IMG/VR virus record: IMGVR_UViG_3300037502_000790
Coordinates: 1 to 52,392 of that record
Origin: a virus
Lineage: Duplodnaviria; Caudoviricetes
DNA: 52,392 bases
Reading direction: 5' to 3' (one strand)
This document shows positions 6,311 through 45,834 of this stretch, piece by piece (within the stretch, counting starts at the first letter, position 1; the number at the start of each line of letters is the position of its first letter). A program made the translations under genes and the position numbers. Below the pieces are notes generated by a model, which ran no database searches, was not told the origin of the DNA, and saw nothing but the letters and a program-made list of their open reading frames with translations.

Positions 6311-7485
6311 TATTTCTTCCCCTTAAGTGCTTTGCGCTTGCGCTGGACAGCAGCTGGCGTGTGAGTCTCTTTGACCAGCCTGTCTAGCTTGCCCTTGCCA
6401 ATCTTTCTGACGGTGTCGGCTGGAAGCACGTACTCGCCGTTCGAGAGCATCGCAGGGATCTTGTCGTCCACAGGACCGCCAGGACCACTCACAGGGCCAG
6501 CGCCAACATGCGCACCATCAGCCAGTCGCAAACCACGATGCACCTCGCCACCGTCCGCAAAGTACTTTCCAAATGCCAGACCAGCGAACTTACCGAAGCC
6601 GCCAAACATATCCGCGTTAGCCTGTTGCTGTGCGTTGTAACCCTGCATACGAGCGTTGAACTCTTGGCCGTAGATATTGCCTGCCGTTCCGTAGCCGCCG
6701 ATCGCCGCTTGATTAGCTGCAGTAGCACCTTGGAAGCCCTGCCCCATGATGCGACCACCCGTTTGGGCAGTGTCTTTTGCGCCTTGGCTTGCATTCAGGG
6801 AGACGCCATAAGCAGTCGATGCATTCGTGGCTAGATTTCTACCAAGACCAGCTGCGTCATACAGCATCGCCATACCCTTGTCTTGCGCCATTGTTCTAGC
6901 TTGGTTCTGTCCGCCAGCACGAGCAAGCGCTTCTTGCGTCAACATCGTTTGGTTCAGCGCAGCAAAGCGGCCTGAGTTCGGCGCAATACCTGCTGCCGCT
7001 AACTGGCGATTCTGCTGGCCACGAGCCACTCCAAAAGCTTGAGATACGTCCGATGCGGCTGCGCGAGCCAACTCTTCTCGTTTGGCTTCGGTGTTGTACT
7101 CCTTGGCGCGCCTAACCAACTCCTCCTCTACCGGGCGGAATGTGCCTTTCTCATAGGCTGAGTAATCATCAGCCCTAGCCTTATTGGCGGCTTGAATATC
7201 TATCTCGCCCTGAAGAAGCTTCGTCAGGGTCGGCTTGAACTCTTCGTACTGCTGCTTGTAAAAGTTCAGCGTATCTGTAGCGATCTTCTCTTGACTAGCA
7301 GCCACAGTCTTCGCAGCTTCAGCTGACGCCATCATCCCGGGGTTGGGGTCAGGCGGACTGCCCTTACCGCCAAAAGCAATGTTGCGTTTCTTCATGACCG
7401 CGAGCTTGCGCTCAATCGGGTCACGAGGGTCATCGCAGACATCCCCGTAGAACTGCATGAAGTCGTCGTATTTGTGTTCGAACAT
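6310..7485 (-). CDS. Putative DNA ejection/pilot protein with C-terminal FADGG...GPGG..D.IPAMLSNGEYV module
   Basis: Ala/Gln/Gly-rich 391 aa, N-terminal FGGKGSPP motif, follows the GNAT gene as in podoviral ejection clusters. Confidence 0.65.
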   Translation of the reverse strand: MFEHKYDDFMQFYGDVCDDPRDPIERKLAVMKKRNIAFGGKGSPPDPNPGMMASAEAAKTVAASQEKIATDTLNFYKQQYEEFKPTLTKLLQGEIDIQAANKARADDYSAYEKGTFRPVEEELVRRAKEYNTEAKREELARAAASDVSQAFGVARGQQNRQLAAAGIAPNSGRFAALNQTMLTQEALARAGGQNQARTMAQDKGMAMLYDAAGLGRNLATNASTAYGVSLNASQGAKDTAQTGGRIMGQGFQGATAANQAAIGGYGTAGNIYGQEFNARMQGYNAQQQANADMFGGFGKFAGLAFGKYFADGGEVHRGLRLADGAHVGAGPVSGPGGPVDDKIPAMLSNGEYVLPADTVRKIGKGKLDRLVKETHTPAAVQRKRKALKGKK

Positions 7486-7496
7486 TCTCTAGTCCT

Positions 7497-7916
7497 TTAG
7501 ATAAAGCGGCATTCTTCTCGCCACATCCGATAGATGATTACGTCGCCGCCGTCTCTCGCCGCGCCCTCGAGCACAGCCTCTGGTTTGAATCCTAGGTGTT
7601 CGTCCAACTGACGAGCCTTGATGTTTGATGCTTCTACCCACCCGCTTACGCGCTTGCACTTGAGTTGATTGAATGGGTAGCCAAAAACCGCTTTAACAAA
7701 CGACTTTGTTGCCCAGTGACCACCATCTATTCCTGCCACATGCATGAAGATATTGTTGGTGCTGTAGCTGTCGTACAGAACTCCGCCCACCAATTCGCCG
7801 TCGCGCTCGATACCAATGCCCTGCATACCCGCAGAGAACACCATCGGCACACCCCGGTCAGTCACAAAACTGAAGACTCGGTCAACGTCGAATATTAGGT
7901 TACTCATGTTAGGCAT
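7497..7916 (-). CDS. GNAT-fold acetyltransferase-like virion assembly protein
   Basis: VFGYPFNQLKCKRVSGWVEASNIKARQLDEHLGFKPEAVL pattern; position after the nozzle gene. Confidence 0.75.
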   Translation of the reverse strand: MPNMSNLIFDVDRVFSFVTDRGVPMVFSAGMQGIGIERDGELVGGVLYDSYSTNNIFMHVAGIDGGHWATKSFVKAVFGYPFNQLKCKRVSGWVEASNIKARQLDEHLGFKPEAVLEGAARDGGDVIIYRMWREECRFI

Positions 7917-8100
7917 TCAGTCTAGCTATTATGCCATTCACTGCGCTGATCACTTCAGGCAAAGTGGCATCGGTGGGTAGCTGCGCAAGCGGCCCTCCAC
8001 GAGCCCCGGTAATGGACTCGATGTTCTCCTTCATGGGGCGCAGTAGGGAGGCAATCCTCTGATCCGCCACATTCACTGCAGGGATGCTTGGCTTCTTCAT
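7909..8100 (-). CDS. Small tail-associated protein
   Basis: 63 aa, overlapping start/stop coupling with both neighbours. Confidence 0.6.
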   Translation of the reverse strand: MKKPSIPAVNVADQRIASLLRPMKENIESITGARGGPLAQLPTDATLPEVISAVNGIIARLNA

Positions 8101-9911
8101 AATGTCGCCAGTTCTTTCACTGTCTCAGCCATCTTGACGTAGCGGCATTCGATGTTGCCGGAGATGCGCACCTCAAAAGCCTGCCCTTTGTAACCCGAGG
8201 GCATCCTGTACACACCCGACTGCGTGTATTGCCCATTGAAAACAAGCTCACCATCGCAGTACACCTCGGTCAACAGGTAGCGATCGTCAACGATACTTGG
8301 TATGTTTTTGAGGATGGAGCCATTCAAGTCTCGCGTATTGAGGACGAACTCATTGAGGGAGCCTTGTAAGTTGCCGGAGGCAGCAAAAAGAGCTTGGTTG
8401 TACGCAATGATCTCCGCAATACGCTCCGCCAGATCTTCCGCCTCCTGCGCATTATCAAAATCCGCATCCAACTCAATGGCGCCAAGATTCACGGGTTTCG
8501 TAAAGATAAATCTTTTGGATAGCCACTCATAAGGCAACCAGTTGTAGATGTCCCCTTCCCACTGCTTGATTACATCGTCTTCAACAATAAACAGGGTGGC
8601 CGTTTCAGGGTCTACGAAGCAGGCGTTGGACTGAATGCTGGTGATTGACAGCGGTGTTGCAGGAAGCGTTCGGTCAAGAATAAAAGCGCCGTCCTTGAGA
8701 TACTCAGTGCCATTCGTGTAGAAACCAAAGTACTTGCCAGCATAGTTTGCACACCGCAGAGTGGCTGGGTTGAACTTCTCAAAGTCGTCCCTCAGCATGA
8801 TGTTCCCTGTGGTGAGGCCAGCTGCGCCGGGTCCAATCACGCAGATACCGTTGGTACTGGCATACACCACGCCACTCGAATCAGAGGCGATGGAGCGCTT
8901 AGCAACACAGGGCTCGAGTTCCGGAATCTTTTCCGGCGACATTGATTCTGGCGTAAGGCCAGTGACGATCTGAGGGAAACCCCTTGTCATCACAGCAACA
9001 GAGGTACCAAAGATCCCAAGTCCCACGATGTCCACGTTTAGCGATAGGCGGTACTCAAGAGGCCAAGCGTGAGGCGCACCTATTTCGGACATGCACAGCT
9101 CTTGCCCCACAAACCCGATCAAGAAGCCGCTGGGGTGTGCAACAAGGCCAGCCAGTTCATCGGGCGGCTCTAACCAAGTAAGCGACTGCAGCTCCTCGCC
9201 TAATGCAGCTGCCGCGACGTTGTCAGAGTAGCTTGTTGTAGCAACTGCGATCTCAGCCACAAACAGAAAGGTAGTTGTTGCTGACCCAGTGACAGAACGA
9301 TAGATTCTGCGCTTGGTGACGTTGTAGTCGCCAGAGGGCGCCGCAGAAAAGCCGCTGACCGTAATCGTGTCCCCAGTTCCACAAAGGACCTCGGCAGAGA
9401 CCGGACTTGGCGCGCTTTCTTCCTCGATGCCGCCAAACTCTTGGATATTGGTGTACACGTAAACGCGGGTCTCCGGCGAGCCGCCAGAACCAACCCTTGC
9501 AACCGTGGGGGCAGCCGTTGGGGCCTTCACGCCCATGTTCAAGTAGTCAGCCGGGGGGTCGCCCTGTGTACTTCCGGCCAAAGTCGAGTTGGTCTTTTTG
9601 GGTGTAGTGTCCCCGGTGTAGTAGATCGACATCGGGTTGGATGAGTCTGTAATTGGATTACGCACCACATCCACATCATCTACCCAAGAAATCCAAAGCG
9701 CGTCCCCTGCTGTGTCCTTGCCTTTGTAAATGCTGATTGTTCCTTCTGGAACATTGAACGCAGGCGAGACCGGAGACGGCTTTCTCCACGCCCTTAAATC
9801 TCCGGCGTATAGCTTGGTGTTGATGGCTCGTTGCGCTTCGTTGTCTTGAAGCAAGTGCGCCGCAACCCGAGGAACGTATCCTCCTTGCGTCATGAGCTTC
9901 AGACCAGCCAT
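8097..9911 (-). CDS. Tail nozzle / tail tubular protein B-like (beta-propeller) structural protein
   Basis: 604 aa, beta-rich, motifs such as SEIGAPHAWP and CVAKRSIA..SGVVYASTNGI; synteny with GNAT and ejection genes. Confidence 0.7.
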   Translation of the reverse strand: MAGLKLMTQGGYVPRVAAHLLQDNEAQRAINTKLYAGDLRAWRKPSPVSPAFNVPEGTISIYKGKDTAGDALWISWVDDVDVVRNPITDSSNPMSIYYTGDTTPKKTNSTLAGSTQGDPPADYLNMGVKAPTAAPTVARVGSGGSPETRVYVYTNIQEFGGIEEESAPSPVSAEVLCGTGDTITVSGFSAAPSGDYNVTKRRIYRSVTGSATTTFLFVAEIAVATTSYSDNVAAAALGEELQSLTWLEPPDELAGLVAHPSGFLIGFVGQELCMSEIGAPHAWPLEYRLSLNVDIVGLGIFGTSVAVMTRGFPQIVTGLTPESMSPEKIPELEPCVAKRSIASDSSGVVYASTNGICVIGPGAAGLTTGNIMLRDDFEKFNPATLRCANYAGKYFGFYTNGTEYLKDGAFILDRTLPATPLSITSIQSNACFVDPETATLFIVEDDVIKQWEGDIYNWLPYEWLSKRFIFTKPVNLGAIELDADFDNAQEAEDLAERIAEIIAYNQALFAASGNLQGSLNEFVLNTRDLNGSILKNIPSIVDDRYLLTEVYCDGELVFNGQYTQSGVYRMPSGYKGQAFEVRISGNIECRYVKMAETVKELATL

Positions 9912-9920
9912 TTACTCCCC

Positions 9921-10859
9921 TTATATGATTTGCTTACCACGGAAGAATGCTTTCTCCCCGTGTACTGAACAGAATTCTGGATGTATGAGTTCGCCATCTA
10001 CGATCGTCAACACAGCAAAGCCAGAGCAATGGTTTGTTGGGTTGTCTTCCCCGTAGTGCATGTGGTCCCCATCCGTCTCTGCAAGAGTCCCGCAGTCGAT
10101 ACCCCACCGGGTTCCTCGATAGTCAGACAGGATCGTTGCCTGCAGTCGGTGTAGGTGACCGGTGCACATCGAAACTCCACCATGCAGTGTGTTGTTCCAC
10201 GTAGCGTGGGTGCCATTCCTAAACCGGTGCTTGATCATTAGGTTCTTGTTAATGAACAAGCTGATAGTGAAGTTCCAGCCGTGAAAGTGATCCTTTAAGC
10301 TAAATCCGCTAACTCCAGAAAACTCTGGAACTGAGTTAGCAAGCTTTGCTTCAAACCGCATGTCGTGGTTGCCCAGCGTCCACCAAGTCTTTGCGTTCCC
10401 AGAGACCTCCTTGATCTCTTGTAGTCGCTCAGTGACAGCCTCTAGCTCTTGCTTGACCGTTGGCATTGCGCCCCAGTCCATCCTTGGGTGGCGACTGATG
10501 CTGGCGCCGTCTAGCAGGTCGCCGTTCATTACAACGATCTCCGGCTTGAGGTCTTTGACCACTTTCACTAATGCCTGATGAGCTGTGCTGATAACACCGG
10601 GCCAGTAATGCGCGTCTGATCCGACAACAATCACTCCGTTCCGCATAGAGCAGTCTACACGGGGTGAGTGTTCTCGAATCACATATGTTGGGGAACGCGG
10701 GTCTGTGGAACCTAGATTAACGCCCAGCCTAGCCTCAAGCTCTCTTCGACGACGATGAACATTTCTCTCTGCAACACCTAGATACTTTGCTACAGCCGCA
10801 GCAGACTGAAGTCTTTTCCAAGTCTCTATGAATTTCTCTTCACTTATTCGTTGTGACAT
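9921..10859 (-). CDS. Calcineurin-like metallophosphoesterase with N-terminal HTH
   Basis: Motifs SDAH, NGDLLD, GNHD, KH, GHLH; N-terminal AAAVAKYLGVAERNV helix-turn-helix. Confidence 0.85.
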   Translation of the reverse strand: MSQRISEEKFIETWKRLQSAAAVAKYLGVAERNVHRRRRELEARLGVNLGSTDPRSPTYVIREHSPRVDCSMRNGVIVVGSDAHYWPGVISTAHQALVKVVKDLKPEIVVMNGDLLDGASISRHPRMDWGAMPTVKQELEAVTERLQEIKEVSGNAKTWWTLGNHDMRFEAKLANSVPEFSGVSGFSLKDHFHGWNFTISLFINKNLMIKHRFRNGTHATWNNTLHGGVSMCTGHLHRLQATILSDYRGTRWGIDCGTLAETDGDHMHYGEDNPTNHCSGFAVLTIVDGELIHPEFCSVHGEKAFFRGKQII

Positions 10860-11199
10860 TTCGTTGTTGTGGTTGTTGCAAAACAGTAAGCGCCGCGATC
10901 ATCCCTTTAGGAATCACCAGAGTCTGCGCGTGATTGTCGGAAGATAGCGTCTGGCATACCTTCACATGCGTCTTGGTTTGCTTCATTAGCCACCCAACCG
11001 TAAAGCAGTTCAGCACTGGCTCTTCCTCATCTTGGTGATTTCCCTCTTGCCAACCAAACTGGTGCTCGGCATCCAACCACTCCACCAGAACGATTGCCGG
11101 AGTATCTATCGCGGGACCGCTTGGAACCACATTGCGACTTTTACTACCACCCCGCCGATTGTTGCTGATAGTCCGCTTATCCACAGAAGTGTCCTCCAT
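10840..11199 (-). CDS. Conserved hypothetical phage protein (true start possibly near 11130)
   Basis: VLVEWLDA..GW...C.TVGWL...IPKGMI pattern typical of small phage beta proteins. Confidence 0.6.
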   Translation of the reverse strand: MEDTSVDKRTISNNRRGGSKSRNVVPSGPAIDTPAIVLVEWLDAEHQFGWQEGNHQDEEEPVLNCFTVGWLMKQTKTHVKVCQTLSSDNHAQTLVIPKGMIAALTVLQQPQQRNVTTNK

Positions 11200-11351
11200 C
11201 CACCTTTAGCTTCAGACAATGTTTGCTGGATGCCAGAAAGCTGATCCATCATCTTGTACATGTCCTTGTGCAAGCGGTTCACTTGATCTTGTAGCGCCTC
11301 AATCTGCGCGTCGTGTTTACCAAGGTCCCGGTGAATCTCTTCGCTCATCAA
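11106..11351 (-). CDS. Coiled-coil plus C-terminal TM protein (lysis cassette accessory)
   Basis: Heptad coil, then KGGWRTLLWISGLSATIGGVVV TM segment; directly after the endolysin. Confidence 0.65.
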   Translation of the reverse strand: MMSEEIHRDLGKHDAQIEALQDQVNRLHKDMYKMMDQLSGIQQTLSEAKGGWRTLLWISGLSATIGGVVVKVAMWFQAVPR

Positions 11352-11767
11352 ACAATCTCCACGCCAGCCTGCAGTTGTGCCAATGTAAATCCACCCGTGT
11401 ACTGGAAGTGCGCCATTTCCTTAAAGCGCTTCCACTCCCCAGCCCACTCCAACCCCGCCTGCTTGCCCAACTCACCAAGCTTCGCCCAGACAGGATCCTT
11501 CGTATTCCAGTTCGCCTTGCCATTGACCAGAGGCACGACATCTATAGCGCAACGATGGTTGTGCCACGACTGCCCCGGCTTCGCGTTGGTAACTATTGCC
11601 CCGGGCGCCGTGCGGCCTTGAGCGTAGAGAGCTGCTTGACTAGCGGCGTCTCTAAAAGTGGAGGTGATCAGCAAGTCGATGCCGTTCTCTTCGCATAGCT
11701 GCTGGAACCTCTCCACCTTAGCCCTCACAACGGGCAACAGCTCTTTGATGTCTCTCGAGTTAATCAT
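11348..11767 (-). CDS. Endolysin, peptidase M15 (L-Ala-D-Glu peptidase type)
   Basis: R...QAALYAQGRT.PG.IVTNAKPGQSWHN...AIDVV...LEWAGEW...EMAHFQ signature. Confidence 0.9.
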   Translation of the reverse strand: MINSRDIKELLPVVRAKVERFQQLCEENGIDLLITSTFRDAASQAALYAQGRTAPGAIVTNAKPGQSWHNHRCAIDVVPLVNGKANWNTKDPVWAKLGELGKQAGLEWAGEWKRFKEMAHFQYTGGFTLAQLQAGVEIV

Positions 11768-12249
11768 TGCGAGTTGTAGTTCTTGATTATTTCTTGAAGG
11801 GCTTCTAAACGGCGCTCGTTGTCTCGGCAGGATTCGTAGTTCTCTGCGACTGTGGCGGCAACGTCTTGAGCTTTGACGGAGGCTGCATCAGCTCCGGTGG
11901 CACTGGAATCCGGCACGGTTGCGTTCGCGGCTGCGTCGTGGAACACCCGGAAACCACCAGACAAATTGCAATCACTTTCCACATACTTCGGTATCTCCTT
12001 GATCAGAGTCTTGTAGACCACTCGTTCCTTTGTCGCCGAAGCTGCCACCTTCGCGCCCACAGCGTCCGCAAACGCTTGATCTTTCCTCTCCTGCTTGAGA
12101 GCTGCCTCTGCAAGTGCAGCCTTCTCCGCATCCCACTTCGCCTGTACGTGGTCTACCCCTAGACTCCAAGAAAGCGCGCACACCGCAAGGACAACGAGTG
12201 ACAGGGCTATCCACCTAGCCACCTTCCAGTTCATCATCAGACTTACCAT
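11764..12249 (-). CDS. Rz-like spanin
   Basis: N-terminal TM, coiled coil, FRVFHDAAA and NYESC..N...LEALQ motifs; between holin and endolysin. Confidence 0.7.
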   Translation of the reverse strand: MVSLMMNWKVARWIALSLVVLAVCALSWSLGVDHVQAKWDAEKAALAEAALKQERKDQAFADAVGAKVAASATKERVVYKTLIKEIPKYVESDCNLSGGFRVFHDAAANATVPDSSATGADAASVKAQDVAATVAENYESCRDNERRLEALQEIIKNYNSQ

Positions 12250-12499
12250 TCTTGATTTGCTCCAGTTTCTCTTTGCTCCTGCCCCATGCGGTTATCCCTA
12301 AGATCGCGCCAAAAGCTAGATGGATCAGACCACCAGCCTGCAACGTGATTGGTTGCCATTGCATTAACCCGGCATCCATGTAGTACTGAATGATGGAGAA
12401 CAGAATTGGGAAGACGATGAAGTCGCAGACGTTGATTGCCATGTACACCCAAGCCATCGTTGGGCGCCACTTTCGGTTCATCCAGTCTTCAGTCTTCAT
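12215..12499 (-). CDS. Holin (GTA-holin-like)
   Basis: KWRPTMAWVY...GAILGITAWGRSKEK; hydrophobic segments; first gene of the lysis cassette. Confidence 0.75.
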   Translation of the reverse strand: MKTEDWMNRKWRPTMAWVYMAINVCDFIVFPILFSIIQYYMDAGLMQWQPITLQAGGLIHLAFGAILGITAWGRSKEKLEQIKNGKSDDELEGG

Positions 12500-13624
12500 C
12501 TACTTGAAGAATGGACCAACCATCCAACAGACCACCGAGTAGCGAGTCCCTTTTGTGATGTCCTCTACCCCATGCACAAGGAAGCTTGGAAACACCAACA
12601 CCGTGCCTTTAGCCTGCGGCGGGTAGTACCGCTCGTGACCGTCTTGGATAAAAAACTTACCACCCTCAAAGTCGTCGTTTAAGAACGCTAGCACCGTTAG
12701 CTTTCGACACTCTTCCTGTGGATTGAGAAACGTATCCATATGCGCCGTGTATCTACCACCAGCGGGGTATTTCAAAAACTCCGCTTGATTAGCGTGACTG
12801 ATATTAAAGTTCCAAGCACGACGATTTGCAGACAGACCAGCTGCAGCCAAACGACCACCAATGTCCTTGTACACCGGCAGCATCACGCGCTCGACGTTGC
12901 GAATCTCTGTATTAATAGCACCTTCACCTGTGCCGATAACCGGCGGCAGCTTCTCTACTAACTCTTGGTCGTAGGTCTTGATAATGATGTCGCAAGCCTC
13001 GGGTGTCAGGATGTCGGTGTATATCCAGTGCCGTAGGTTTTGCGGCTGCTCCTCTGGCAGGTTCAGTTTGCCGCGCTTGTCATACACCCACTCCTTGTGC
13101 GGCCCATCAGCATCGACGTAGTGCAGGAATACCTGCGCCTGCCACTTACCCTCGGTATAGACCTCACGCCAATGATGCTTGTCCATGCCACGGTACAGAA
13201 CGGCGTCTCCGACGTTCATGTCTATACGACTTGCATTTTCTTTGTTTTCACCATCACCCATATAGATGGGCCAGACATCGCCTTCAAAGCCGAGCGTCAC
13301 AGTCGCACTGATCTCGCAAGACTCGCGGTCGGTATGGTTCTTTAGCTCATCGCCCGGTGCGTACAGTCTGGCGTAGGAGTAGGTTGGCAGTAGGCGCTTG
13401 CCTGACGCTTGCTCAAAATGCGGTAGTAGCTGCACCAGCAACGAGTCAAAGACTTGAGCGCCGTGGATTGCCTCGGACTTCGGGCACTGCACATCTTGCG
13501 TGGTTTGTTTTTGCGCGACGAGTTTCTTCAACTCAGCAGTGAGTTGTGCGCAGTTATCCTTATCCAGAAACTCTGGCAGGTGTACGTATTTTTGTACTGT
13601 AAATTGCGATAGCGCGTCGCACAT
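12500..13624 (-). CDS. Tandem double 2OG-Fe(II) oxygenase
   Basis: Domain 1: HTDRESCEIS...HWR...QVFLHY. Domain 2: HMD...RKLT...LNDDFEGG...FPSFLVHGV..ITKGTRYSVVCW. Confidence 0.85.
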   Translation of the reverse strand: MCDALSQFTVQKYVHLPEFLDKDNCAQLTAELKKLVAQKQTTQDVQCPKSEAIHGAQVFDSLLVQLLPHFEQASGKRLLPTYSYARLYAPGDELKNHTDRESCEISATVTLGFEGDVWPIYMGDGENKENASRIDMNVGDAVLYRGMDKHHWREVYTEGKWQAQVFLHYVDADGPHKEWVYDKRGKLNLPEEQPQNLRHWIYTDILTPEACDIIIKTYDQELVEKLPPVIGTGEGAINTEIRNVERVMLPVYKDIGGRLAAAGLSANRRAWNFNISHANQAEFLKYPAGGRYTAHMDTFLNPQEECRKLTVLAFLNDDFEGGKFFIQDGHERYYPPQAKGTVLVFPSFLVHGVEDITKGTRYSVVCWMVGPFFK

Positions 13625-13627
13625 AAA

Positions 13628-14044
13628 TTATTCACTCCATTGAGCAGTTGGCTCTACAGGCCAGTCAATAAAACCTGCTTGCGGATTAATAATGAAACTA
13701 CGCAGCCATGATCTGTACGAAAGAAAATCAGATTGATTCGTCAAGTACGGAGGATATGCTGGATCTGCTGCATCAGGTTCTACCGCCCAGTTAGTAGCAG
13801 CGTACTTTTCTTCTGCTGTTGTTTTGTTTTCGTCTGCTGTAGGCACAGGGGGCGGCGCTACTGGCATTACTTCGCATACACCGTTGTAGTACCACCAAAT
13901 ATCTGCAACGCAATCATCCGGGCAATCAATCCAATAAAGCGGTGGCGCAACTTCAAACGCCAACGGTTCTACCTGCGCAACGCGGCATCCAACATTGCCT
14001 AAATAATCTGTTCTTAATTCCATCGGCGAAATTAAAGCTTTCAT
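13628..14044 (-). CDS. Tail fibre assembly/chaperone-like protein
   Basis: C-terminal TNWAVEPD...YRSWLR...WPVEP pattern; follows the Gly-rich fibre gene; AT-rich. Confidence 0.7.
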   Translation of the reverse strand: MKALISPMELRTDYLGNVGCRVAQVEPLAFEVAPPLYWIDCPDDCVADIWWYYNGVCEVMPVAPPPVPTADENKTTAEEKYAATNWAVEPDAADPAYPPYLTNQSDFLSYRSWLRSFIINPQAGFIDWPVEPTAQWSE

Positions 14045-14721: not shown

Positions 14722-14725
14722 CGTC

Positions 14726-15694: not shown

Positions 15695-15706
15695 TCTTGG
15701 CCCCTA

Positions 15707-16150: not shown

Positions 16151-16171
16151 CTATTTCTCCTCGTATCAAAC

Positions 16172-19007: not shown

Positions 19008-19014
19008 GTTGTTC

Positions 19015-19335: not shown

Positions 19336-19341
19336 CCCCCG

Positions 19342-19587
19342 TTACCTATGCTTTGCGGTCTTCTTCGCAATCGCCTTGGGCTGCTTTGATACCTGCTTGC
19401 CCTTGGCCTTTGCTTCTCGCTTAGCCTTCGTGGTTGCCGCGTACTCAGATGGAGTAAGCGCTTTGATTGCCTTTTCGGGCAAATACCTTTCGCCAGTAGC
19501 GTCAGGTCCTTGTGTGGACGGCTTGCCGGATTTGGTGCGCCACTTCTGGTCGGTCCAATCCTTTAGCGATTTCTGGGGCTTTTTCAT
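19342..19587 (-). CDS. Basic protein, C-terminal half of DUF5872-like
   Basis: MKKPQKSLKDWTDQKWRTKSG...GERYLPEKAIKAL; start reassigned to ATG 19587. Confidence 0.65.
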   Translation of the reverse strand: MKKPQKSLKDWTDQKWRTKSGKPSTQGPDATGERYLPEKAIKALTPSEYAATTKAKREAKAKGKQVSKQPKAIAKKTAKHR

Positions 19588-19588
19588 T

Positions 19589-19768
19589 TCAGTCCTTGTA
19601 CCCGCCGCCAGCGTCCTTGTATGCCTTGGCAAGCATCTGTGCTTTACGAGCACTCCACTCACCGGGCGAACCGCCTTTACCGCCAGCCTTGATTTCGTTG
19701 AACAGTCGCTTCCTTAGAGCTGGCTTGGTGTAGTTGCCAGCCTCATTGACCTTCGACTTTGGCTTCAT
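19589..19768 (-). CDS. 59-aa basic protein, N-terminal half of DUF5872-like (not in ORF track)
   Basis: Translated by hand: MKPKSKVNEAGNYTKPALRKRLFNEIKAGGKGGSPGEWSARKAQMLAKAYKDAGGGYKD. Confidence 0.75.
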   Translation of the reverse strand: MKPKSKVNEAGNYTKPALRKRLFNEIKAGGKGGSPGEWSARKAQMLAKAYKDAGGGYKD

Positions 19769-19967
19769 CGGCTTTTCCCTTCTTCGTCAGGACAGCTTTC
19801 GCCATAGCCTTGATGTCGTCCTGCGCGGCAACCGTCTCAGCCACTGGTTGTGCTGGCGCCTTTACTTTCGCAGGCGGCTCGTAGTCCACCATATCGTTGC
19901 GCTTCGCGAGGTTGTCGGTCCACGGGAACACGCGGCCAGTTGGTTTGTGCTTAAGTAGTTTTTGCAT
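19743..19967 (-). CDS. Hypothetical protein after MCP
   Basis: 74 aa, GAGG SD upstream. Confidence 0.6.
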   Translation of the reverse strand: MQKLLKHKPTGRVFPWTDNLAKRNDMVDYEPPAKVKAPAQPVAETVAAQDDIKAMAKAVLTKKGKADEAKVEGQ

Positions 19968-19980
19968 ACATCCTCAGAAT

Positions 19981-20013
19981 GAAGAAAGGGGGAAGAGATC
20001 TCTCCCCTCCCCC
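19981..20013 (-). terminator. Probable intrinsic terminator/attenuator after MCP
   Basis: G-rich/C-rich hairpin (GGGGAGAG..CTCTTCCCC) followed by TTTCTTC on the minus strand. Confidence 0.5.
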
Positions 20014-20021
20014 ATCAGGCA

Positions 20022-20963
20022 TTAAGCCTTGGCGGCGTACAGATCCACCAGAGCTTCAGGCTTCACAACCTTGTAGCCGTACACGTTCAGACCGCGAACG
20101 ATGTTGCCGAAGGTCGAAGTCGAGCGCAGGCTTTCCACGTTGGTGATCTGCGAAGCGAACGAGATCGCGTCACGGGTACCAGCGAGGAAGTGGTAGGCGT
20201 TGTCACCACCAGCAGTCACCTTGGTCAGGTTGTTCGAAACGAACAAGGTGAAGCGGTCGATCATGCCCAGCTTGCCGTTACGCAGCGGAGACACATCGTC
20301 ACCGGTCAAGTAGGCTTGACGCAGATCCGAGGACTTGAGCAGCGAAGCAAACCAAGGAGTGACAACCATCCAACGGCCATCTTCAGGCACGTTCTGCTCG
20401 TCCAGAACTTGACCGCAGTTCAGGATGTTTTCCAGAACATTGGTTGCGTCGATCTGAACAGGAGCACCAGTGGTACCGAGGTCGATGTCGCCAGAGATAG
20501 CGCCAGCAGTGGTGCCTTGGTTAGCAGCAGCAACGTCAGGAGCCACGTTGTTCAGAACGTCGCCGTCGATAGCGATCTTCATCTGCTCGGAAGCATCGTT
20601 GGTGAAGATGTCCATCAGACGAACGTCGGCCTGCACATCATCCACATCGTCAACGATGACGGAGAAGTACTTACCCTTGTCGATCGTCAGCTCGATCGGA
20701 GTGGAGGTCGGAACCTGATTCGACAGGTTCATACCCTTCTCGTAGTTCGAGATGGTGATCGTCGGGATCGAACGGATGTGGATCGTGTCGCCCTGATTCT
20801 TAATCTCGCCTTCCCAATCGTTGTTGGTGATTTCAGCGAGAACGGTGCTCTTATAAAACTTGACCTGAAGCTTGCCGCTCCAAATCTCAGGAATGAACGC
20901 TGAACCGGCAGGGTTGGCGTTGTACGAGTACTGGGGATAACCAGCGGATACTGGAACTGCCAT
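20022..20963 (-). CDS. Major capsid protein (HK97 fold)
   Basis: FIPEIWSGKL...EGEIKNQGDTIHI...VRGLNVYGYKVVKPEAL; follows the scaffold gene; strong SD. Confidence 0.9.
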   Translation of the reverse strand: MAVPVSAGYPQYSYNANPAGSAFIPEIWSGKLQVKFYKSTVLAEITNNDWEGEIKNQGDTIHIRSIPTITISNYEKGMNLSNQVPTSTPIELTIDKGKYFSVIVDDVDDVQADVRLMDIFTNDASEQMKIAIDGDVLNNVAPDVAAANQGTTAGAISGDIDLGTTGAPVQIDATNVLENILNCGQVLDEQNVPEDGRWMVVTPWFASLLKSSDLRQAYLTGDDVSPLRNGKLGMIDRFTLFVSNNLTKVTAGGDNAYHFLAGTRDAISFASQITNVESLRSTSTFGNIVRGLNVYGYKVVKPEALVDLYAAKA

Positions 20964-21006
20964 TTTAATTCTCCTAACATATAGCAGTACCGCTAATACC
21001 TAAGGG

Positions 21007-21948
21007 CTAACGAATGCGCCCCTCGATCGTTGCGGCGTGGATTTCGGATTCCATCGCCACCATTTCCTTTGCTGAGATTTCACCGCGTCGAGCTGCAGCG
21101 TAGAAAGCTGCGATCTCTGGACGAGTGAAGATTCGTTTACCCGCAGGCGGCTGCACGACACGATTCGTATCGGGCGAGACCTGTGCGGCTAATGCTTGGG
21201 AATTGGGGGCGGTGCGTTGTTTCTGCGTGGCTTTCCACTTGGTAAAGAACCGCGCAACGCGCTCTGCATCCTTAGCTGCTTCTGCTTCGGAAAGGAGGTC
21301 TTGACGGGTTTTGCCTGTCAGCTCGTCGTATTCATCAAGCCACTTCAAGAAGCCTTCATCGGAGTTGATCGTTACCCAGTCAGGAGCAATGCGACCCAAG
21401 GTGTCGAAAAAGTTGACCTCTACGGACTTGGCTGTGGTCTGGTTGACCATATCCAAACGCCGTTTTAGATCTTCAATCTCCGCCTCTTTGGCTGCGACTT
21501 GCTCTTGGGCTGCTCGCTTCATAACGTCGAGCAGGTCGTCCCCGTACTTCTCTCTGTCTTCTTGGCTGATGAGTGACTGCTGCGGTTTTGCCGCCTGACT
21601 CTTCAGACTTTCCATCTGTTGCTGAAGCGCTTCGATTTGAGTGCGAAGCTCGCGGTTGTCCGCCGCTAAGCGCGGGACCTCAGCTCTGTACTTGCCCTCG
21701 ATTACCTTGTACTTGTGTTCCCATGTGTCATCCTTTTGTTGCGCGTCTGGCAGCTCACCTACTGGTGGAGCAATCGCAACGTCCGGCTGTGGAGCTGGAC
21801 TTGGCTCAGGATCTGCGTTGGGAGCAGGATCAGGTTGTGGATCAGGTACTGGTTGCGGTTGAGGATCCTCGGCAGGCTTCTCATACACCTGCTTGTGGAG
21901 TGCTTCGGCCTTTTCAGCCGCCTCTCGAACTGCGCGTGGAATTGCCAT
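21007..21948 (-). CDS. Capsid scaffolding protein
   Basis: Pro/acidic N-terminus, WEHKYKVIEGKY coil, PDWVTINSDEGFLKWL, C-terminal EGRIR; precedes MCP. Confidence 0.8.
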   Translation of the reverse strand: MAIPRAVREAAEKAEALHKQVYEKPAEDPQPQPVPDPQPDPAPNADPEPSPAPQPDVAIAPPVGELPDAQQKDDTWEHKYKVIEGKYRAEVPRLAADNRELRTQIEALQQQMESLKSQAAKPQQSLISQEDREKYGDDLLDVMKRAAQEQVAAKEAEIEDLKRRLDMVNQTTAKSVEVNFFDTLGRIAPDWVTINSDEGFLKWLDEYDELTGKTRQDLLSEAEAAKDAERVARFFTKWKATQKQRTAPNSQALAAQVSPDTNRVVQPPAGKRIFTRPEIAAFYAAARRGEISAKEMVAMESEIHAATIEGRIR

Positions 21949-22067
21949 AAATTCTCCATGAGCCGAATCTCGAGACGAACGGAGCCCTCGGAAGGTAGTC
22001 CGCCGATACGAGATCAGTGTTCATTACTTGCTGACTAAGACCCGGTCAGCGCGGGTTGCCCTACGGG

Positions 22068-22298
22068 CTAAAACTTGCGAATGGTTTCTTGCGCGTTGTC
22101 AGCTCGCTGTAGGAACTCTTGCAACAGCTGTTGGGCGCCTTGATTCCAGCGGGTTTGTACCTCGTCCTTGGAATAAGGCGTCTGTTCATTCAGCTCGTTG
22201 AGAGTCGTCCTCAGCCATTGCTTGACAACTTCAAAATGAATATCACCATCCAGAGTCGCTAAGGCTTGGATGGCTTGTTTACTTGGTTGGGTTATCAC
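22068..22298 (-). CDS. Small head-region protein
   Basis: 76 aa helical, RWNQGAQQLL motif, between portal and scaffold. Confidence 0.65.
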   Translation of the reverse strand: MITQPSKQAIQALATLDGDIHFEVVKQWLRTTLNELNEQTPYSKDEVQTRWNQGAQQLLQEFLQRADNAQETIRKF

Positions 22299-23035
22299 TA
22301 GCGGGATTTCAACGGGAATCTCTGGGAGTACTCACCCTCAAGCTCCTTGCGAACAGGGAACTCTTGGCTCGTCTCAGGCTTCATGTCTTTGTAGACTGCC
22401 TTGCTTCGGCGCGTCTTCTGGCGCGACTTTACTGGAGCATCGTCTTCTCGCAGCGGCTTACCCTTGATCGGCTCCGGATCTTTGAATGGGCGAACCTCAA
22501 CATCGTCGCCTCGACCTTCCATCGTCGGGTTCGAGAAGATTCCACCCTTCGGCTTGACGCCGCGATCTGCTTCATCAGCATACGTGTCAGAAACCGGTGG
22601 AGGTGTGTTGCCTTCTTCATCGAGAGTACTCATGTTGCGACCAGAGTAGTCACTCGACTGGTTGTTCGTAGGCGTCTTCATGTCACGTTCCATCTGACCG
22701 CGACCGGCGCCATACTTGTAGTACGCCTCAGAGCCCTTGCTGTCGATGTTACCCTCTTTCAGACGAGAGCCCAGACGCTTGAAGCCGTCAACGAATTTCT
22801 CGAGGCCGCTCATGTTTGAACGCTCAGCTTCACGCTCGCGGTTCGAAACCTCCAAGCCCTCACGCTTTAACTGCTCTTCGTCCGCCAACCCGCCATCGGC
22901 AAAGTTGAAGCGCATACCTTGCTGAGGCTTGACGTTCTCGGAGTGGAAAATAGGACGGCTTGTAATACCCGGCTTGGTTCTCGCTTCGCCGGTTTTTGCC
23001 GCGCTTTGGCGCTGCCAATCAGGTACGTATCCCAT
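22298..23035 (-). CDS. Hydrophilic protein with MGYVPDWQRQS leader and FADGG tag
   Basis: Start reassigned to ATG 23035, 2 nt after the upstream stop; low-complexity charged sequence. Confidence 0.7.
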   Translation of the reverse strand: MGYVPDWQRQSAAKTGEARTKPGITSRPIFHSENVKPQQGMRFNFADGGLADEEQLKREGLEVSNREREAERSNMSGLEKFVDGFKRLGSRLKEGNIDSKGSEAYYKYGAGRGQMERDMKTPTNNQSSDYSGRNMSTLDEEGNTPPPVSDTYADEADRGVKPKGGIFSNPTMEGRGDDVEVRPFKDPEPIKGKPLREDDAPVKSRQKTRRSKAVYKDMKPETSQEFPVRKELEGEYSQRFPLKSR

Positions 23036-23037
23036 TC

Positions 23038-23223
23038 TTATTTCCCGTAATCTTGCATCGAACGACGACCAGTGCCTGACATGCCAGATGCGCAACCAGC
23101 CATCCCGCCATCAGCCATTTTCTTGGCGCCTTTGTGCATCTTCGAAACGTGCGCCTCGACTTCTTTCTTGGCGACCTTCTTCATTTTTGCCATGCCGCCG
23201 TCTGCGTATTTCTTCATCATCAT
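23038..23223 (-). CDS. 61-aa Lys/Met-rich peptide with two ADGG tags
   Basis: KKYADGGMAK...KKMADGGMAG; AGGAG SD overlapping the portal stop. Confidence 0.75.
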   Translation of the reverse strand: MMMKKYADGGMAKMKKVAKKEVEAHVSKMHKGAKKMADGGMAGCASGMSGTGRRSMQDYGK

Positions 23224-23232
23224 TTGCGTCTC

Positions 23233-25350
23233 CTAGATAGAGCCATTCATAACCAACGAGCGAAGGACTTGATCCGCCATCGGCTCAGGAACTTGCCCAC
23301 CGTCTGCCATCTGCATCGGCTGCATCGTGTTTGCCATCTGCCCACCAGCTGGAGCGCCACCAGGTAGTTGCTCTTGCGGAGCCCCTAGTGCAGGCGGCAT
23401 CCCTTGCTGTTGTTGCATCTGTGACATCATCTGTTGGATCATCTCTTGAGCCATCACCTGTGCGGCAGCTTGAATCTTCTGCTGCTCGAAGGTGTTCTGG
23501 TCAGGAACGATCTTGGTTGTATCCATCTGCAGACCACGCGCAGCCTCGCGCAGCAGGTATGCCCTGCCCTCGACGCCAGTGATCTGAGAATCAATCGGAT
23601 TCGCTGTAGCCATGAGGAACTCATTGCGGCGCATCTGGAGAGTCTCTTTGTGCAGGAGACCGATCGCGCCCTTGGCTACAACTTTGAAGTCGCCCTTGAT
23701 GTAAGGATCAGGGTCGAACATCATGTTGTGCAGATATAGTCTCTGCACAATACCACTTACTATTTTATCTATGTTTGCAACAGCTTGCTTGATACCTTTC
23801 GATGCATTGTCCATAAGCATCGACAGACCACTGGCTGTGCGACCAGCGCCACTCACGGCACTGGAGCCGTAGACGTAGTTCGGAATGCCGGTGACCTCGT
23901 CGGCCTGTCGAGCGAACGTGGTGTACACGCTAAGCAGGACATCGGCGTTCATGTTCGGCTGGAAGAAACGAACAGCAGGCTGACCACCGCCAGTACGGTC
24001 GGAGGTTGTCTGCCAGATCTTCCACGGATAGATGTCGGTCAGCTCCTCGCCATCAGGCAGGCGGTCAACCGCGATCTCAGCTTGAGGGCCAGAGGCAATC
24101 CCCATGTTGTTCGCCAAGCTACGAGCTGCGGCGTTGCACATGATCTGGGTATCGCGCATGACTTCGGGTAGCGCCACACCCCAGAAGCTGTGAGGCACTT
24201 CTTCCCATGAGGAGATCTCATACGGACGCTCGCCCAGCGGATCCGGGTTCAGGATGCACTTCCAGACAATTCCGCCCGTCCACCAGAGGTTCACCTCATA
24301 GGTTTTGTCGGAGACGATCGTCTTGTCTTTGATTCCCCACTCGAGCAGCCACTCACCATTGACCGAACCCCAGAACTCCACCGTCTCAATCTCGCTGGTG
24401 TTGATCGGGAAACGAAATGGCTTACCCTCGAGGTCGCGGCGCTCACTGTCGCCTTGCAACCAGCTGCGGTAGCCTTTGCGCCCATAGCGATCGATTACGG
24501 TAGCCAGAGCATCTTCGTTGACACCCGGGGTACCGCTCATCGATTCCAAACCGACAAGGTTCAGGCGGTGACGCTGGATCAGGTAGGCGTCGTTCACGCC
24601 AGTTGAAGCCGGTGCCGGGAAGATGTCATACGGGCTGACCCGCTCCATCTCACGGACGAACTCGGTAGTCACGATCGCTTGGAAGTCTGGACCCCACGCA
24701 AGGGCTTTGCGCCGCTTGACATTTGGCCCCTTCATGACTGCCGTTGGGAACGTAACGAAGTCCGTTATGAAGTTGCGCAGCTCGTCCTTGAACTTGCCTT
24801 GGTTGAGCTGATCCTCGATCTTGTCTCCCATGCGACGGGCGGAGTCCTCAGCCTCAGCGCGCAGCTTCTGCATAATGTTGTCGTGGACTTCTTCCATGCG
24901 AGCACGGAAAGTCTCGGGGTGCAGCTCGCCACCTTCAGCAATGTATTGCTCAGCCTCAGTGCGAACCAAATCCACGATCGCCTTCTTCATCTCAGGCGGC
25001 ATCTGGGGGTTCTTGGCAGGGGTCAGATCAAAGACGCGCTCTTGCTGATTTAGCATCACATCTTTGATCCATGACTCAGCAGCGCGACATTTGACGTCTG
25101 TAAGCATCATAAATATGTCACTGCCACCGGTCTTGCGAATGTCGGCCTCGTGGTCAGGGTCGTAGACACCACGGCGTTGACGCTCGCAGCGGAGCAGGCG
25201 CTCGGTGATCTGAGTCTTGGCGGTCTTCGCCTCGTTCCAGCACTGGCGCACATACGCGGCAAGTTGCGTCTCGAAACCCGGATTGCTGATCTCGTTGCCG
25301 TCTTCCTTGATGTCTATTTCAACCGGAGGTTGTTCGTTCACATAGCTCAT
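23233..25350 (-). CDS. Portal protein
   Basis: 705 aa after terL; SFWGVALPEVMRDTQ...N, ADEVTGIP, RTASGLSMLM motifs; Gln-rich tail. Confidence 0.9.
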   Translation of the reverse strand: MSYVNEQPPVEIDIKEDGNEISNPGFETQLAAYVRQCWNEAKTAKTQITERLLRCERQRRGVYDPDHEADIRKTGGSDIFMMLTDVKCRAAESWIKDVMLNQQERVFDLTPAKNPQMPPEMKKAIVDLVRTEAEQYIAEGGELHPETFRARMEEVHDNIMQKLRAEAEDSARRMGDKIEDQLNQGKFKDELRNFITDFVTFPTAVMKGPNVKRRKALAWGPDFQAIVTTEFVREMERVSPYDIFPAPASTGVNDAYLIQRHRLNLVGLESMSGTPGVNEDALATVIDRYGRKGYRSWLQGDSERRDLEGKPFRFPINTSEIETVEFWGSVNGEWLLEWGIKDKTIVSDKTYEVNLWWTGGIVWKCILNPDPLGERPYEISSWEEVPHSFWGVALPEVMRDTQIMCNAAARSLANNMGIASGPQAEIAVDRLPDGEELTDIYPWKIWQTTSDRTGGGQPAVRFFQPNMNADVLLSVYTTFARQADEVTGIPNYVYGSSAVSGAGRTASGLSMLMDNASKGIKQAVANIDKIVSGIVQRLYLHNMMFDPDPYIKGDFKVVAKGAIGLLHKETLQMRRNEFLMATANPIDSQITGVEGRAYLLREAARGLQMDTTKIVPDQNTFEQQKIQAAAQVMAQEMIQQMMSQMQQQQGMPPALGAPQEQLPGGAPAGGQMANTMQPMQMADGGQVPEPMADQVLRSLVMNGSI

Positions 25351-25361
25351 TTATTTCCCAT

Positions 25362-26792
25362 CTAGGTCCAGCCCTTCGAGGATCTCTTTGTAACCGCCCT
25401 AGCCCTTGCGGGAGTCAGGCCGCTTCTGACCTTCAAGCATGCGTACTGCAGCGCGTCTTGGATGTGCGAGTAGATGTCTTTGACGGGTCGGTCTTTATAG
25501 CGAGCGTTGCCGGAAGTCTTCAGCCGCTCAAACTTGTAGCGCCCAAGGAATCCCTTCCTCAGGTTTGTGCATCGTGGGTTCAGCAGGAAAGCTGGCTCAC
25601 CGTCCATCATCCGGGTCATGAAGAAGGCAACGGATTCGCGCCTTGGGATGAAGTCGTTGGTGGCGGCTGGCTCGGTGTAGATCCCCGCCTCAAGCAGCTC
25701 CTGAAGACAGGTGCGCTCGTCGGTCTGGGCTCGGATGTTTCCGGCTGGGTCGCCTGCTGAATGAATTTGAAAACCGCCGTACTTGTTCATAAGTACCGGC
25801 TTTACGATATCGTTGGCGAACTGGCGGATACCCATATCCTCTGATACCAGTTCATCCAGAATGATAATCTTCCCTCTTCCTGTTACTTGCAGGATGACGC
25901 AAGCAGGTGTGAGTCCAAAGTCCCACCCCAATACGATCGGCAGGCCACGCTCACCCTCGACGTTCTTGTTGAGGCAGTGCACCTTGTCGTTGTACTCAGG
26001 GTAGACCGGCTTGCCGTCTTTGGTGGATCCGTAATTCCCAAGAAGGAATACGTTGATCCAGTCCTCCGACTTCGAGGGGACTTGCTGCTGGTAGTAGCTG
26101 TAGCCACCCGGCAGGTTGAATACGTTCTCGGCGTCTGGGTTCGGTGCATAAGTGCCGTCTTCCAAACGCAGCAGGCCACCCGGTTGACGGAAGAACTCCC
26201 ACTCAGGCGGACAGTCTTCCTCAGCCAGCTTGTAGTACCAGTGATCGTCGTCGCACGGGTTGGTGTCAAGGATGATCCCGCACCAGCTCGGCCCACCCTG
26301 CAGCTTCGATGGGAATCGTCCCACCCGCTGGGTGACCATATCGAAGATTTCTTTAGGGACCTCCGAAGCTTCGTTGATCCATGCGCCTGTCAATTCCAGC
26401 GACCGGAGCTTGCCCGTCTCTGTAGGCTTGTCCAGCGCCATGAACATCACCTCGAGTTCCAGCCCGGTGCCATCCCCGATGTTGTTGATCTTCATCGTCG
26501 ATGTGATTGGGGTGTCCCACTTGATGGGCGCCACGTTTGTCGCGAACCAAGTCTCCCAAGTTTTGATGGTGGTGGACTTTAGCTCCGGGTAGGTGTTACG
26601 AATGATAAGCCATCGAGAACGCCGAATACCGTCGCGGCTAGGACGTTGTCGCAATGCGCGAGCCACAATTTCCACGCAACAACTTGAGGATTTTCCAGAA
26701 CCAACAGGACCCATAAGGCCGCGTACAAACGCATCTGATTCGTGGAACTTCGCTGCATTCTTTCCCGGGGGCGAGTACTTGATTACTTCCAC
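25362..26792 (-). CDS. terL: Terminase large subunit
   Basis: Walker A GPVGSGKS, Walker B AWINEASE, DTNP coupling motif, RNase H GWDFG and HIQDALQY. Confidence 0.95.
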   Translation of the reverse strand: MEVIKYSPPGKNAAKFHESDAFVRGLMGPVGSGKSSSCCVEIVARALRQRPSRDGIRRSRWLIIRNTYPELKSTTIKTWETWFATNVAPIKWDTPITSTMKINNIGDGTGLELEVMFMALDKPTETGKLRSLELTGAWINEASEVPKEIFDMVTQRVGRFPSKLQGGPSWCGIILDTNPCDDDHWYYKLAEEDCPPEWEFFRQPGGLLRLEDGTYAPNPDAENVFNLPGGYSYYQQQVPSKSEDWINVFLLGNYGSTKDGKPVYPEYNDKVHCLNKNVEGERGLPIVLGWDFGLTPACVILQVTGRGKIIILDELVSEDMGIRQFANDIVKPVLMNKYGGFQIHSAGDPAGNIRAQTDERTCLQELLEAGIYTEPAATNDFIPRRESVAFFMTRMMDGEPAFLLNPRCTNLRKGFLGRYKFERLKTSGNARYKDRPVKDIYSHIQDALQYACLKVRSGLTPARARAVTKRSSKGWT

Positions 26793-27133
26793 TAGCGCTT
26801 TCTTGGTATTGAGTAGTAGCGGTCGCCGCGCTTCACGACGTCGTAACCCGCCTCGTCTTCGCCCTTCAGAGCTTTATCCCAAGTCTCGTGCTTGGCGCCC
26901 TTGAGCATGATTCCAGTTCCCTCTGGCAGATCCTTCGGGCGATCTTTCTCGTTCAGCTCGACACGAGATCCCCAGTGACCGAGGTTCTCTCCAGTCCCAT
27001 CTGGGCCCATCCCGTATCGCTTAGCCGTCTCGTAGTCGTAGCCGTCGCTCTCCGCGTCAAAGGCAGCGCCACCATCGGCCATGTGCTTGACCTTGCCGTA
27101 GCTCTGGCGCATCCAGTCGGGGGCGTGTCCCAT
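26792..27133 (-). CDS. Small protein with MGHAPDWMRQS leader and MADGG tag
   Basis: 113 aa inserted between terS and terL, coupled to both. Confidence 0.75.
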   Translation of the reverse strand: MGHAPDWMRQSYGKVKHMADGGAAFDAESDGYDYETAKRYGMGPDGTGENLGHWGSRVELNEKDRPKDLPEGTGIMLKGAKHETWDKALKGEDEAGYDVVKRGDRYYSIPRKR

Positions 27134-34472: not shown

Positions 34473-34507
34473 CCAATATCAATCAACCAAAGAAAGGAAA
34501 TCTAACC

Positions 34508-40811: not shown

Positions 40812-40833
40812 GTATTGACAGCGTGGTTAATAC
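40812..40833. promoter_or_regulatory. Candidate operator / cI promoter -35
   Basis: Dyad GTATTGAC-agcgtg-GTTAATAC containing TTGACA; GTATTGAC recurs at 41561. Confidence 0.45.
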
Positions 40834-40874
40834 AGGTGTTGAATTGCGCCTTTGTAGCGCACACAGGGGGGCTT

Positions 40875-45803: not shown

Positions 45804-45834
45804 GCGCAGGCGTGTCCCCGGCTTGGAGGGGGTT

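Follow-up and report, generated by a model that had tools for sequence, protein, structure and literature searches.

How minor and ejected proteins are loaded into the heads of protease-less podoviruses is poorly understood; in P22 and T7, minor head proteins are loaded by protein-protein contacts. We describe here a short peptide tag, [MLFY]-A-D-G-G, in a marine-type podovirus that belongs to a clade of HMO-2011-like podoviruses. The window analyzed is the whole IMG/VR virus record IMGVR_UViG_3300037502_000790 (52,392 bp; CheckV completeness 93%), in which the tag occurs six times in five proteins:

26792-27133, minus strand: p113, with MADGG at 27068-27082; the gene lies between those for p83 and the large terminase
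23233-25350, minus strand: portal protein (Pfam SU10_portal), with MADGG at 23296-23310
23038-23223, minus strand: pep61, a basic peptide of 61 residues with an isoelectric point (pI) of 10.0, with YADGG at 23194-23208 and MADGG at 23104-23118
22298-23035, minus strand: p246, with FADGG at 22889-22903; no match in Pfam, PHROG or NCBIfam
6310-7485, minus strand: p391, a virion structural/ejection-block protein (phrog_8003, 'virion structural protein'), with FADGG at 6547-6561 and a degenerate copy, LADGA, at 6511-6525

The capsid-targeting sequence (CTS) of T4, according to PMC3012670, is a short conserved N-terminal peptide on diverse internal proteins encoded by head genes, and its cargo is swapped among close relatives while the leader is kept. 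The tagged locus resembles this system in that at least three unrelated C-terminal domains follow the same p113 leader, unchanged up to ADGG, and p246 shares the leader type. The analogy with T4 drawn in the preliminary description of the window thus stands for the arrangement of leader and swappable cargo and is not supported for processing. The T4 peptide is removed by the prohead protease, whereas no protease of any family was found in Pfam and PHROG scans of the late genes, the giant virion protein and the other large open reading frames (ORFs) of the window, small early ORFs being partly covered. The tag differs from the CTS further in that it is also found C-terminally, on the portal itself and in the tape measure proteins of other phages. 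The two have no sequence relationship, and packaging of the tagged proteins is a prediction here.

In adenovirus, the maturation consensus is (M/I/L)-X-G-G-X, cut after the second glycine, and in adenovirus or T4 a single protease consensus marks many core proteins. The window is similar in having one GG-ending consensus on unrelated core proteins together with a small basic precursor peptide with two sites. It differs in that the hydrophobic residue stands one position further from GG and in that no protease of clan CE or any other was detected. Minor head proteins of the MuF/SPP1 gp7 type are encoded after the portal and combine a conserved N-terminal part with a variable C-terminal payload. 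The p246 gene likewise lies after that of the portal and has a conserved N-terminal and a variable C-terminal part, but no MuF domain was detected in it, and its conserved part is a short linear leader rather than a folded domain. The cargo peptide of encapsulins binds the inner face of a shell with the HK97 fold; the capsid protein of the window matches a phage capsid family of Pfam. Double-glycine (C39) leaders are 15-30 residues long, end in GG, have a hydrophobic pattern and belong with a C39 peptidase/ABC exporter. We rejected this family as a home for the tag, since p113 alone has a leader of the right length and three tags are internal or C-terminal; the proteins scanned gave no match to C39 or an ABC transporter.

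Six tag copies and their conservation

A six-frame scan of the window returned seven xADGG strings. Six are on the minus strand, inside long ORFs that are real genes, exactly where the preliminary description had placed them. The seventh (23273-23287) is in a non-coding frame behind a stop codon, and there is no further in-frame ADGG in any long ORF of the window. Codon choice varies among the copies (Ala GCG/GCC/GCT/GCA, Asp GAC/GAT, Gly GGT/GGC/GGG), as had been claimed, and the tag is therefore not a DNA repeat. Five of the six copies have a lysine or arginine no more than five residues upstream, which agrees with the basic residue described before most of them; the portal copy has none. 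The tag was not seen in capsid, scaffold, terminase, tail or early proteins, so the reported absence from early proteins is correct and the tag is confined to proteins of the late/virion module. The carriers had also been called five unrelated proteins, which needs amending because p113 and p246 share a homologous N-terminal leader (MGHAPDWMRQS versus MGYVPDWQRQS).

The frequency expected by chance was estimated by shuffling each protein of a crude gene set of longest-ORF calls (81 genes, 16,696 residues). Six copies of [FYM]ADGG were observed against 0.057 expected, a count reached in none of 5000 shuffles, and six copies of ADGG against 0.60 expected, reached in one of 5000. These counts carry a caveat: 145 of 500 shuffles hold some 4-mer with at least six copies, and RLAA occurs eight times in the real set. 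Since some 4-mer reaches this number in many shuffles, the count within the window is a post hoc one, and what decides the matter is that relatives conserve the tag. Two other repeated strings, KALVD and EWLDA, occur three times each in the crude proteome.

Conservation was examined in 51 loci obtained by a portal-based scan of IMG/VR. A hydrophobic residue followed by ADGG occurs in a long plus-strand ORF in all 32 loci with 66-99% portal identity and in none of the 19 at 51% or less. The tag is kept at orthologous positions in all five families. In the portal tail, [ML]ADGG is present in 20 of 21 distinct complete tails from relatives with at least 66% portal identity (five tails cut by contig ends were dropped; locus L029 lacks the tag), and in a 25-sequence alignment ADGG is the sole conserved island of the tail consensus. 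The p113 tag is kept in 11 of 12 distinct orthologues, the remaining one having LADGS. At least one Φ-A-[DN]-G-G, where Φ is hydrophobic, is found in 16 of 17 distinct p246 orthologues (FNDGG in the other), several of which have two or three copies. The second pep61 tag is present in six of six distinct orthologues, and the first is an exact xADGG in four of the six. Among the matches listed for p391, A[DN]GG is retained in 118 of 120 relatives, with a variable residue before it (F in 36, K in 36, R in 12, and others).

The enrichment in virion-module proteins was replicated in three larger relatives taken whole, two of them complete (G001 and G002, 100%; G003, 81%, CheckV). These contain 4, 4 and 5 copies of Φ-A-[DN]-G-G, respectively, against 0.31, 0.44 and 0.26 expected, and the observed count was reached in 0, 1 and 0 of 2000 shuffles. 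Every copy in G001 and G003 is inside the five tagged families; one of the four in G002 is outside them, a WADGG in a Gly-rich protein (25818-26771). The p391 orthologue of G002 has KADGG/KANGG, which the pattern does not count. The finding therefore withstands two of the objections foreseen in the preliminary description, namely that orthologues might not conserve the motif and that virion-module proteins might not be enriched in it. Strong purifying selection acts on [MLFY]-A-D-G-G, a short linear motif of disordered terminal tails. At 40-50% portal identity, one of five relatives gave a weak match, to the p391 coiled coil only, with the module described below absent. For distant cultured relatives, a looser tag, [FYMLW]xxGGx[VIL], was counted. 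It is enriched in HMO-2011 (8 versus 2.06 expected; 1 of 1000 shuffles) but not in CRP-9 (4 versus 2.12; 181 of 1000) or in the two halves of RHph_TM3_14A (284 and 579 of 1000), and generality beyond the clade is therefore unproven.

The leaders of p113 and p246 follow one plan, MG[HY]xP[DE]WxR, then a basic stretch, then Φ-ADGG. The p113 leader, MGHAPDWMRQSYGKVKHMADGG (27068-27133), has 22 residues and ends in the tag, and its cargo domain occupies 26795-27067. A word-indexed search with the leader gave seven database candidates, all seven of which retain it, identical up to ADGG. At least three unrelated C-terminal domains stand behind it: one of 91 residues (window, P0137), another of 140 residues that is Gly/β-rich and has ...TFRKRF at its end, and a third type in P0139 and P0142. 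Compared with locus L005, whose portal is 99% identical, DNA identity at the p113 locus is about 90-100% up to the ADGG codons, about 50% from the tag to 26797 and about 95% from the start of the terminase gene. DNA identity collapses exactly at the tag, and the p113 cargo is therefore a cassette bounded by the tag.

The commonest alternative cargo (L005:1860-2345, P0138, P0140, P0141, P0143) is the Gly-rich β-type domain, with a terminus of the form ...TF(R/Y)K(R/E)F that resembles the C-terminal signal of outer-membrane proteins. Its protein-atlas features give a weak pointer (0.86) to a composition like that of insect attacin/gloverin. An atlas look-up of two p113 cargo domains returned only viral hypothetical clusters and sub-threshold leads. 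Pfam, PHROG and NCBIfam hold no family for p113, p246, pep61, the p113 cargo types or the multi-tag proteins mentioned below.

The remaining carriers show the tag in other settings. In p246, the middle part that comes after the leader (MGYVPDWQRQS...SRPIFH...FADGG) is conserved, whereas the tail is charged and variable, and in pep61 two tags flank a basic helix. The portal ends in a disordered tail rich in P and Q, then MADGG, then a conserved C-terminal amphipathic helix, PMADQVLRSLVMNGSI (23236-23283). In p391, a long helical body is followed by FADGG, LADGA and GPGGPVDDKIPAMLSNGEYVLPA (6418-6486), so that its C-terminal pattern is the tag, a variable spacer and GPGGPVDDxIPAxLSxGEYVxPADT...THTP. 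In a 63-sequence alignment of p391, A310, G312, G313 and the residues of GPGGP.DD.PA.LS.GEYV are invariant. Each tag thus parts a protein body from a short conserved terminal appendix, namely the DW leader, the portal end helix, the second module half of p391 or the C-terminus of pep61. The tags of p391 and the portal are predicted to lie in disordered tails: in AlphaFold2 models, the predicted local distance difference test score (pLDDT) is below 50 for portal residues 647-694, where the tag block is a low-confidence coil (26-33), and for p391 residues 283-355 (tag blocks 31-38), beyond helices at 49-302. Neither model reveals docking of the tag in cis.

In Bcep22-like phages, members of the p391 family bear a virion-associated annotation. 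For the gene that follows the acetyltransferase in phage JC1, as p391 does here, PMC9144972 reports the product in purified virions by mass spectrometry; it is the p391 counterpart by gene position, not by alignment. Three p391 relatives (P0031, P0050, P0085) have an inserted Peptidase_S74 (PF13884) intramolecular-chaperone domain, which separates the coiled-coil body from the C-terminal module, and the annotations of distant homologues in Ochrobactrum and Microcystis phages name an endosialidase chaperone or a tail fiber domain protein. The insertion and these annotations suggest that the p391 body is a trimeric coiled coil.

A module shared with tape measure proteins

The tag is the first half of a module of about 32 residues that is common to tape measure and ejection proteins and is used alone here. 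The module reads Φ-A-x-G-G-x-[IV]-x-GPG(GP/TGT)x[DS]Dx-IPAxLSxGE[YF]V[VI]xA, and its first half probably forms a strand and then a tight GG turn. When 1.84 billion representatives were searched exhaustively by phmmer, 4040 clusters matched p391 residues 296-391 at E ≤ 1e-3 and 368 at E ≤ 1e-10. Most of the top matches are proteins of 2000-8000 residues with three to six matched stretches each. Three of four large module proteins scanned are tape measure proteins of the TP901 type (PF10145, TIGR01760) carrying three or four modules; the fourth, P0182, gave only sub-threshold matches of the NlpC/P60 type. The tape measure proteins of long-tailed phages thus carry three to six copies, and some podoviral internal or ejection proteins, such as p391, carry one. 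The C-terminal stretch of p391 itself matches tape-measure phrogs. The element also occurs in longer proteins with tape-measure Pfam domains, and among longer proteins we found some of 800-1050 residues with three to nine extra copies of Φ-A-[DN]-G-G. A search for the genomic context of two such multi-tag proteins (P0131, P0123) returned no loci.

Statistics were taken from 148 proteins among the matches listed (P0144-P0291), which hold 346 module cores. An upstream x-A-x-G-G accompanies 297 of these cores, in 289 cases at exactly 12 residues from the IPA core. In the 297 modules, the Φ position is F in 97, Y in 58, L in 40, K in 35, R in 29 and M in 9, and the A position is A in 254. The residue before GG is T in 71, S in 61, A in 36, D in 27 and N in 17, with D or N in 44 altogether. 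The long module proteins also contain 125 orphan first halves in 347,550 residues, and a short form of the module with the GPG loop deleted occurs as well.

All six copies in the window fit the first half, and p391 has both halves. The second half, IPAxLSxGE[YF]V, occurs in the window in p391 only and is not found at its fixed distance of 12 residues after GG behind the other five copies. The p391 arrangement departs from the canonical one in its spacer, which is 20 residues rather than 3. Variants of the whole element are present in HMO-2011 gp49 and CRP-9 gp54, the products of large genes after the portal, and in RHph_TM3_14A gp86, the p391 orthologue. Within the clade, the half-module has spread alone to four places: one is the C-terminal tail of the portal, another the small basic peptide pep61, and the remaining two are the leaders at the N-termini of p113 and p246.

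No Pfam or NCBIfam model and no structure resolved in PDB covers the module. A PDB sequence search with the p391 C-terminus gave a single match (8zdo). This tape measure protein, from mycobacteriophage Douge, contains the module twice, but according to PMC13033339 only residues 1658-1699 are modeled in that structure. The tag and module strings appear in no relevant paper of the literature searched, and the accessible text of the phiRIO-1 paper (PMC4819975) is silent on both. That search also found no virion proteome of an HMO-2011-type phage. The suggestion of the preliminary description that the tag marks an undescribed system therefore survives for the module, which is undescribed, but not for the tag as a stand-alone signal, as it is one half of an element found in thousands of clusters. 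A separate outcome of this work is the module itself, which recurs in about 4000 protein clusters, those of tape measure and ejection proteins, and merits a family definition of its own.

Possible roles of the tag

What does the tag do? The reading that we favor, at a probability of roughly 0.4, is that several proteins share it as a docking handle by which they are loaded into the interior of the head. During procapsid assembly, the tag would tie the tails that bear it to one common partner in the portal-proximal interior, for which the ejection-protein core or the scaffold are candidates. The tagged proteins would thereby be loaded into the head and would probably leave it with the ejection proteins, and the leader-plus-tag would mark cargo for loading, as the CTS does in T4. 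Docking is favored because the tag sits on the portal, on a protein of the ejection block and on small proteins of the head module, because the leader-plus-cargo layout, with its swap boundary at the tag, parallels the CTS, and because no protease gene is detectable. It is favored further by the virion association of the p391 family in Bcep22-like relatives, by position-specific conservation in five families while the flanks vary, by the replicated enrichment, by the predicted placement of tags in disordered tails and by the lack of tags on capsid, scaffold, terminase, tail and early proteins.

Several points weigh against docking. No binding partner of the tag was found; a complex prediction for the capsid protein, the scaffold and pep61, run without controls, gave a score of 0.00 and a mark of 0.32 and speaks neither for nor against binding. 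Tape measure proteins, which are located in tails and not in heads, are rich in both the half and the full module. Since tape measure proteins are not capsid contents, the motif is not capsid-specific, capsid addressing cannot be its general function, and head loading would be a clade-specific reuse. Moreover, p113, p246 and pep61 are virion proteins by prediction, the portal of L029 does without the tag and its copy is thus dispensable there, and the layout of body, tag and appendix suits removable propeptides at least as well as docking. The capsid-addressing role put forward in the preliminary description accordingly gains from the leader on at least three unrelated domains and loses from the tape measure proteins and the missing partner. 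If docking is correct, head loading would become directly testable through a five-residue handle that the portal tail shares with an ejection protein and with leaders whose cargo can be exchanged. Such a handle would also point to a hypervariable and possibly injected cargo locus in an abundant group of aquatic phages.

An alternative, which we consider doubtful, is that the tags are maturation sites cut after GG, removing short appendices that serve in assembly only. In this event p113 and p246 would lose their N-terminal leaders, the portal its last 20 residues and p391 its last 78, and a basic peptide of about 30 residues would be freed from pep61. The position of every tag between a protein body and a conserved terminal appendix is consistent with this idea, as are the p113 leader, with cargo beginning immediately after its GG, and the two sites around the basic helix of pep61. 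The last module of giant tape measure proteins is often about 100 residues from the C-terminus, and the self-cleaving Peptidase_S74 domain lies just upstream of the C-terminal module in 3 of the 120 p391 relatives among the matches listed, in which the C-terminal piece is probably shed. The di-Gly cleavage envisaged in the preliminary description is thus compatible with the layout, but the scans of the late genes, the giant protein and the other large ORFs found neither a prohead protease gene nor any other. In full modules, conservation is equal on the two sides of GG (x-[IV]-x-GPG after it), and this conservation, together with the fixed 12-residue spacing in 289 of 297 modules, speaks for an element that is folded or bound and not for a scissile one. 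The residue preceding GG also varies widely in modules (T, S, A, D, G, N).

It is also conceivable, if again unlikely, that the tag works at or after ejection rather than in assembly, with the module as an element found generally in proteins that pass through the tail channel. Such proteins might use it to refold or oligomerize into a trans-envelope conduit or to contact the DNA end or the host envelope, and the tags on the portal tail and the small proteins would then interact with the ejection machinery. That the full module, matched by 4040 clusters, belongs to tape measure proteins (PF10145, TIGR01760) and podoviral ejection-block proteins favors such a role, and the basic residues that flank the tags, like the pI of pep61, would suit DNA contact. 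The portal, however, is not ejected, N-terminal leaders with swappable cargo are more simply read as a loading signal, and no link from the motif to the host envelope or DNA was found here.

A bolder idea, to which we give little credence, is that the tags are orphan first halves of a split β-module that undergo strand complementation with second halves, carried here by p391. The twelve tails of the portal, the small cargo proteins and the ejection proteins would in this way be strung into one 'ejection train'. If this were true, the same module would organize tape measure proteins in thousands of long-tailed phages, and the 22-residue leader would be a natural exchangeable signal that loads cargo for delivery into host cells. 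Finally, a chance resemblance, in which a common turn-forming sequence recurs in Gly-rich disordered tails, could draw on D/N-G-G being a generic turn former and on the 4-mers that reach six copies in 145 of 500 shuffles, but it merits almost no weight and is excluded by conservation in orthologues, the motif being invariant at orthologous positions while neighboring residues drift, in addition to the 5000 shuffles without six copies of [FYM]ADGG and the enrichment in three other genomes.

The genome and its late genes

The late genes are on the minus strand in the order p87, p83, p113, large terminase, portal, pep61, p246, p76, scaffold-like p313, capsid protein, tail genes and ejection block. 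The ejection block consists, in order, of p604, a GNAT acyltransferase, p391, p399 and a giant protein. Besides the tagged genes, the features are:

27133-27384, minus strand: p83, small conserved protein, on the other side of p113 from the large terminase
25362-26792, minus strand: large terminase (Pfam Terminase_3 and Terminase_6N), no tag
21007-21948, minus strand: scaffold-like protein p313 (phrog_13678), acidic Pro-rich/coiled-coil sequence, no tag
20022-20963, minus strand: major capsid protein (Pfam Phage_capsid_4), no tag
8097-9911, minus strand: p604 (phrog_511, internal virion protein), ejection block
7497-7916, minus strand: GNAT acyltransferase (phrog_4470, acyltransferase), ejection block
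5111-6310, minus strand: p399, ejection block
3-5099, continuing into 48612-52391, minus strand: giant polyvalent virion protein, N-terminal part, with an LPD38 domain, no tag

The frame of the giant protein is open across the joined ends of the window and would encode 2959 residues if the record were circularized. Because this ORF runs across the joined ends, the record is a circularly permuted, essentially complete genome. The position of the giant ORF corresponds to that of the DarB-like giant virion protein of Bcep22-like phages. The GNAT acyl-CoA N-acyltransferase gene is directly upstream of p391, and the two genes are neighbors also in G001 and in Bcep22-like phages of Ralstonia and Burkholderia.

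No close phage record was found for the window at the DNA level. At the portal, protein identity is 26-35% with Rhizobium phage RHph_TM3_14A, Roseobacter CRP phages, pelagiphages and Puniceispirillum phage HMO-2011. The window contains an Amidoligase_2 (PF12224) gene that adjoins a weak class-II glutamine amidotransferase match (32994-35557, plus strand). An amidoligase is present in both tag-bearing complete relatives and in none of three that lack the tag, a contrast confounded by phylogeny. Among the tail and lysis genes are a 2OG-Fe(II) oxygenase/ferrochelatase-like gene (12500-13624, minus strand) and a metallophosphoesterase gene (9921-10859, minus strand). A tyrosine integrase (45802-46887, plus strand), a helix-turn-helix repressor-like protein (40815-41540, plus strand) and an ERF recombinase (41623-42255, plus strand) are also encoded, and because of these three genes the phage is probably temperate.

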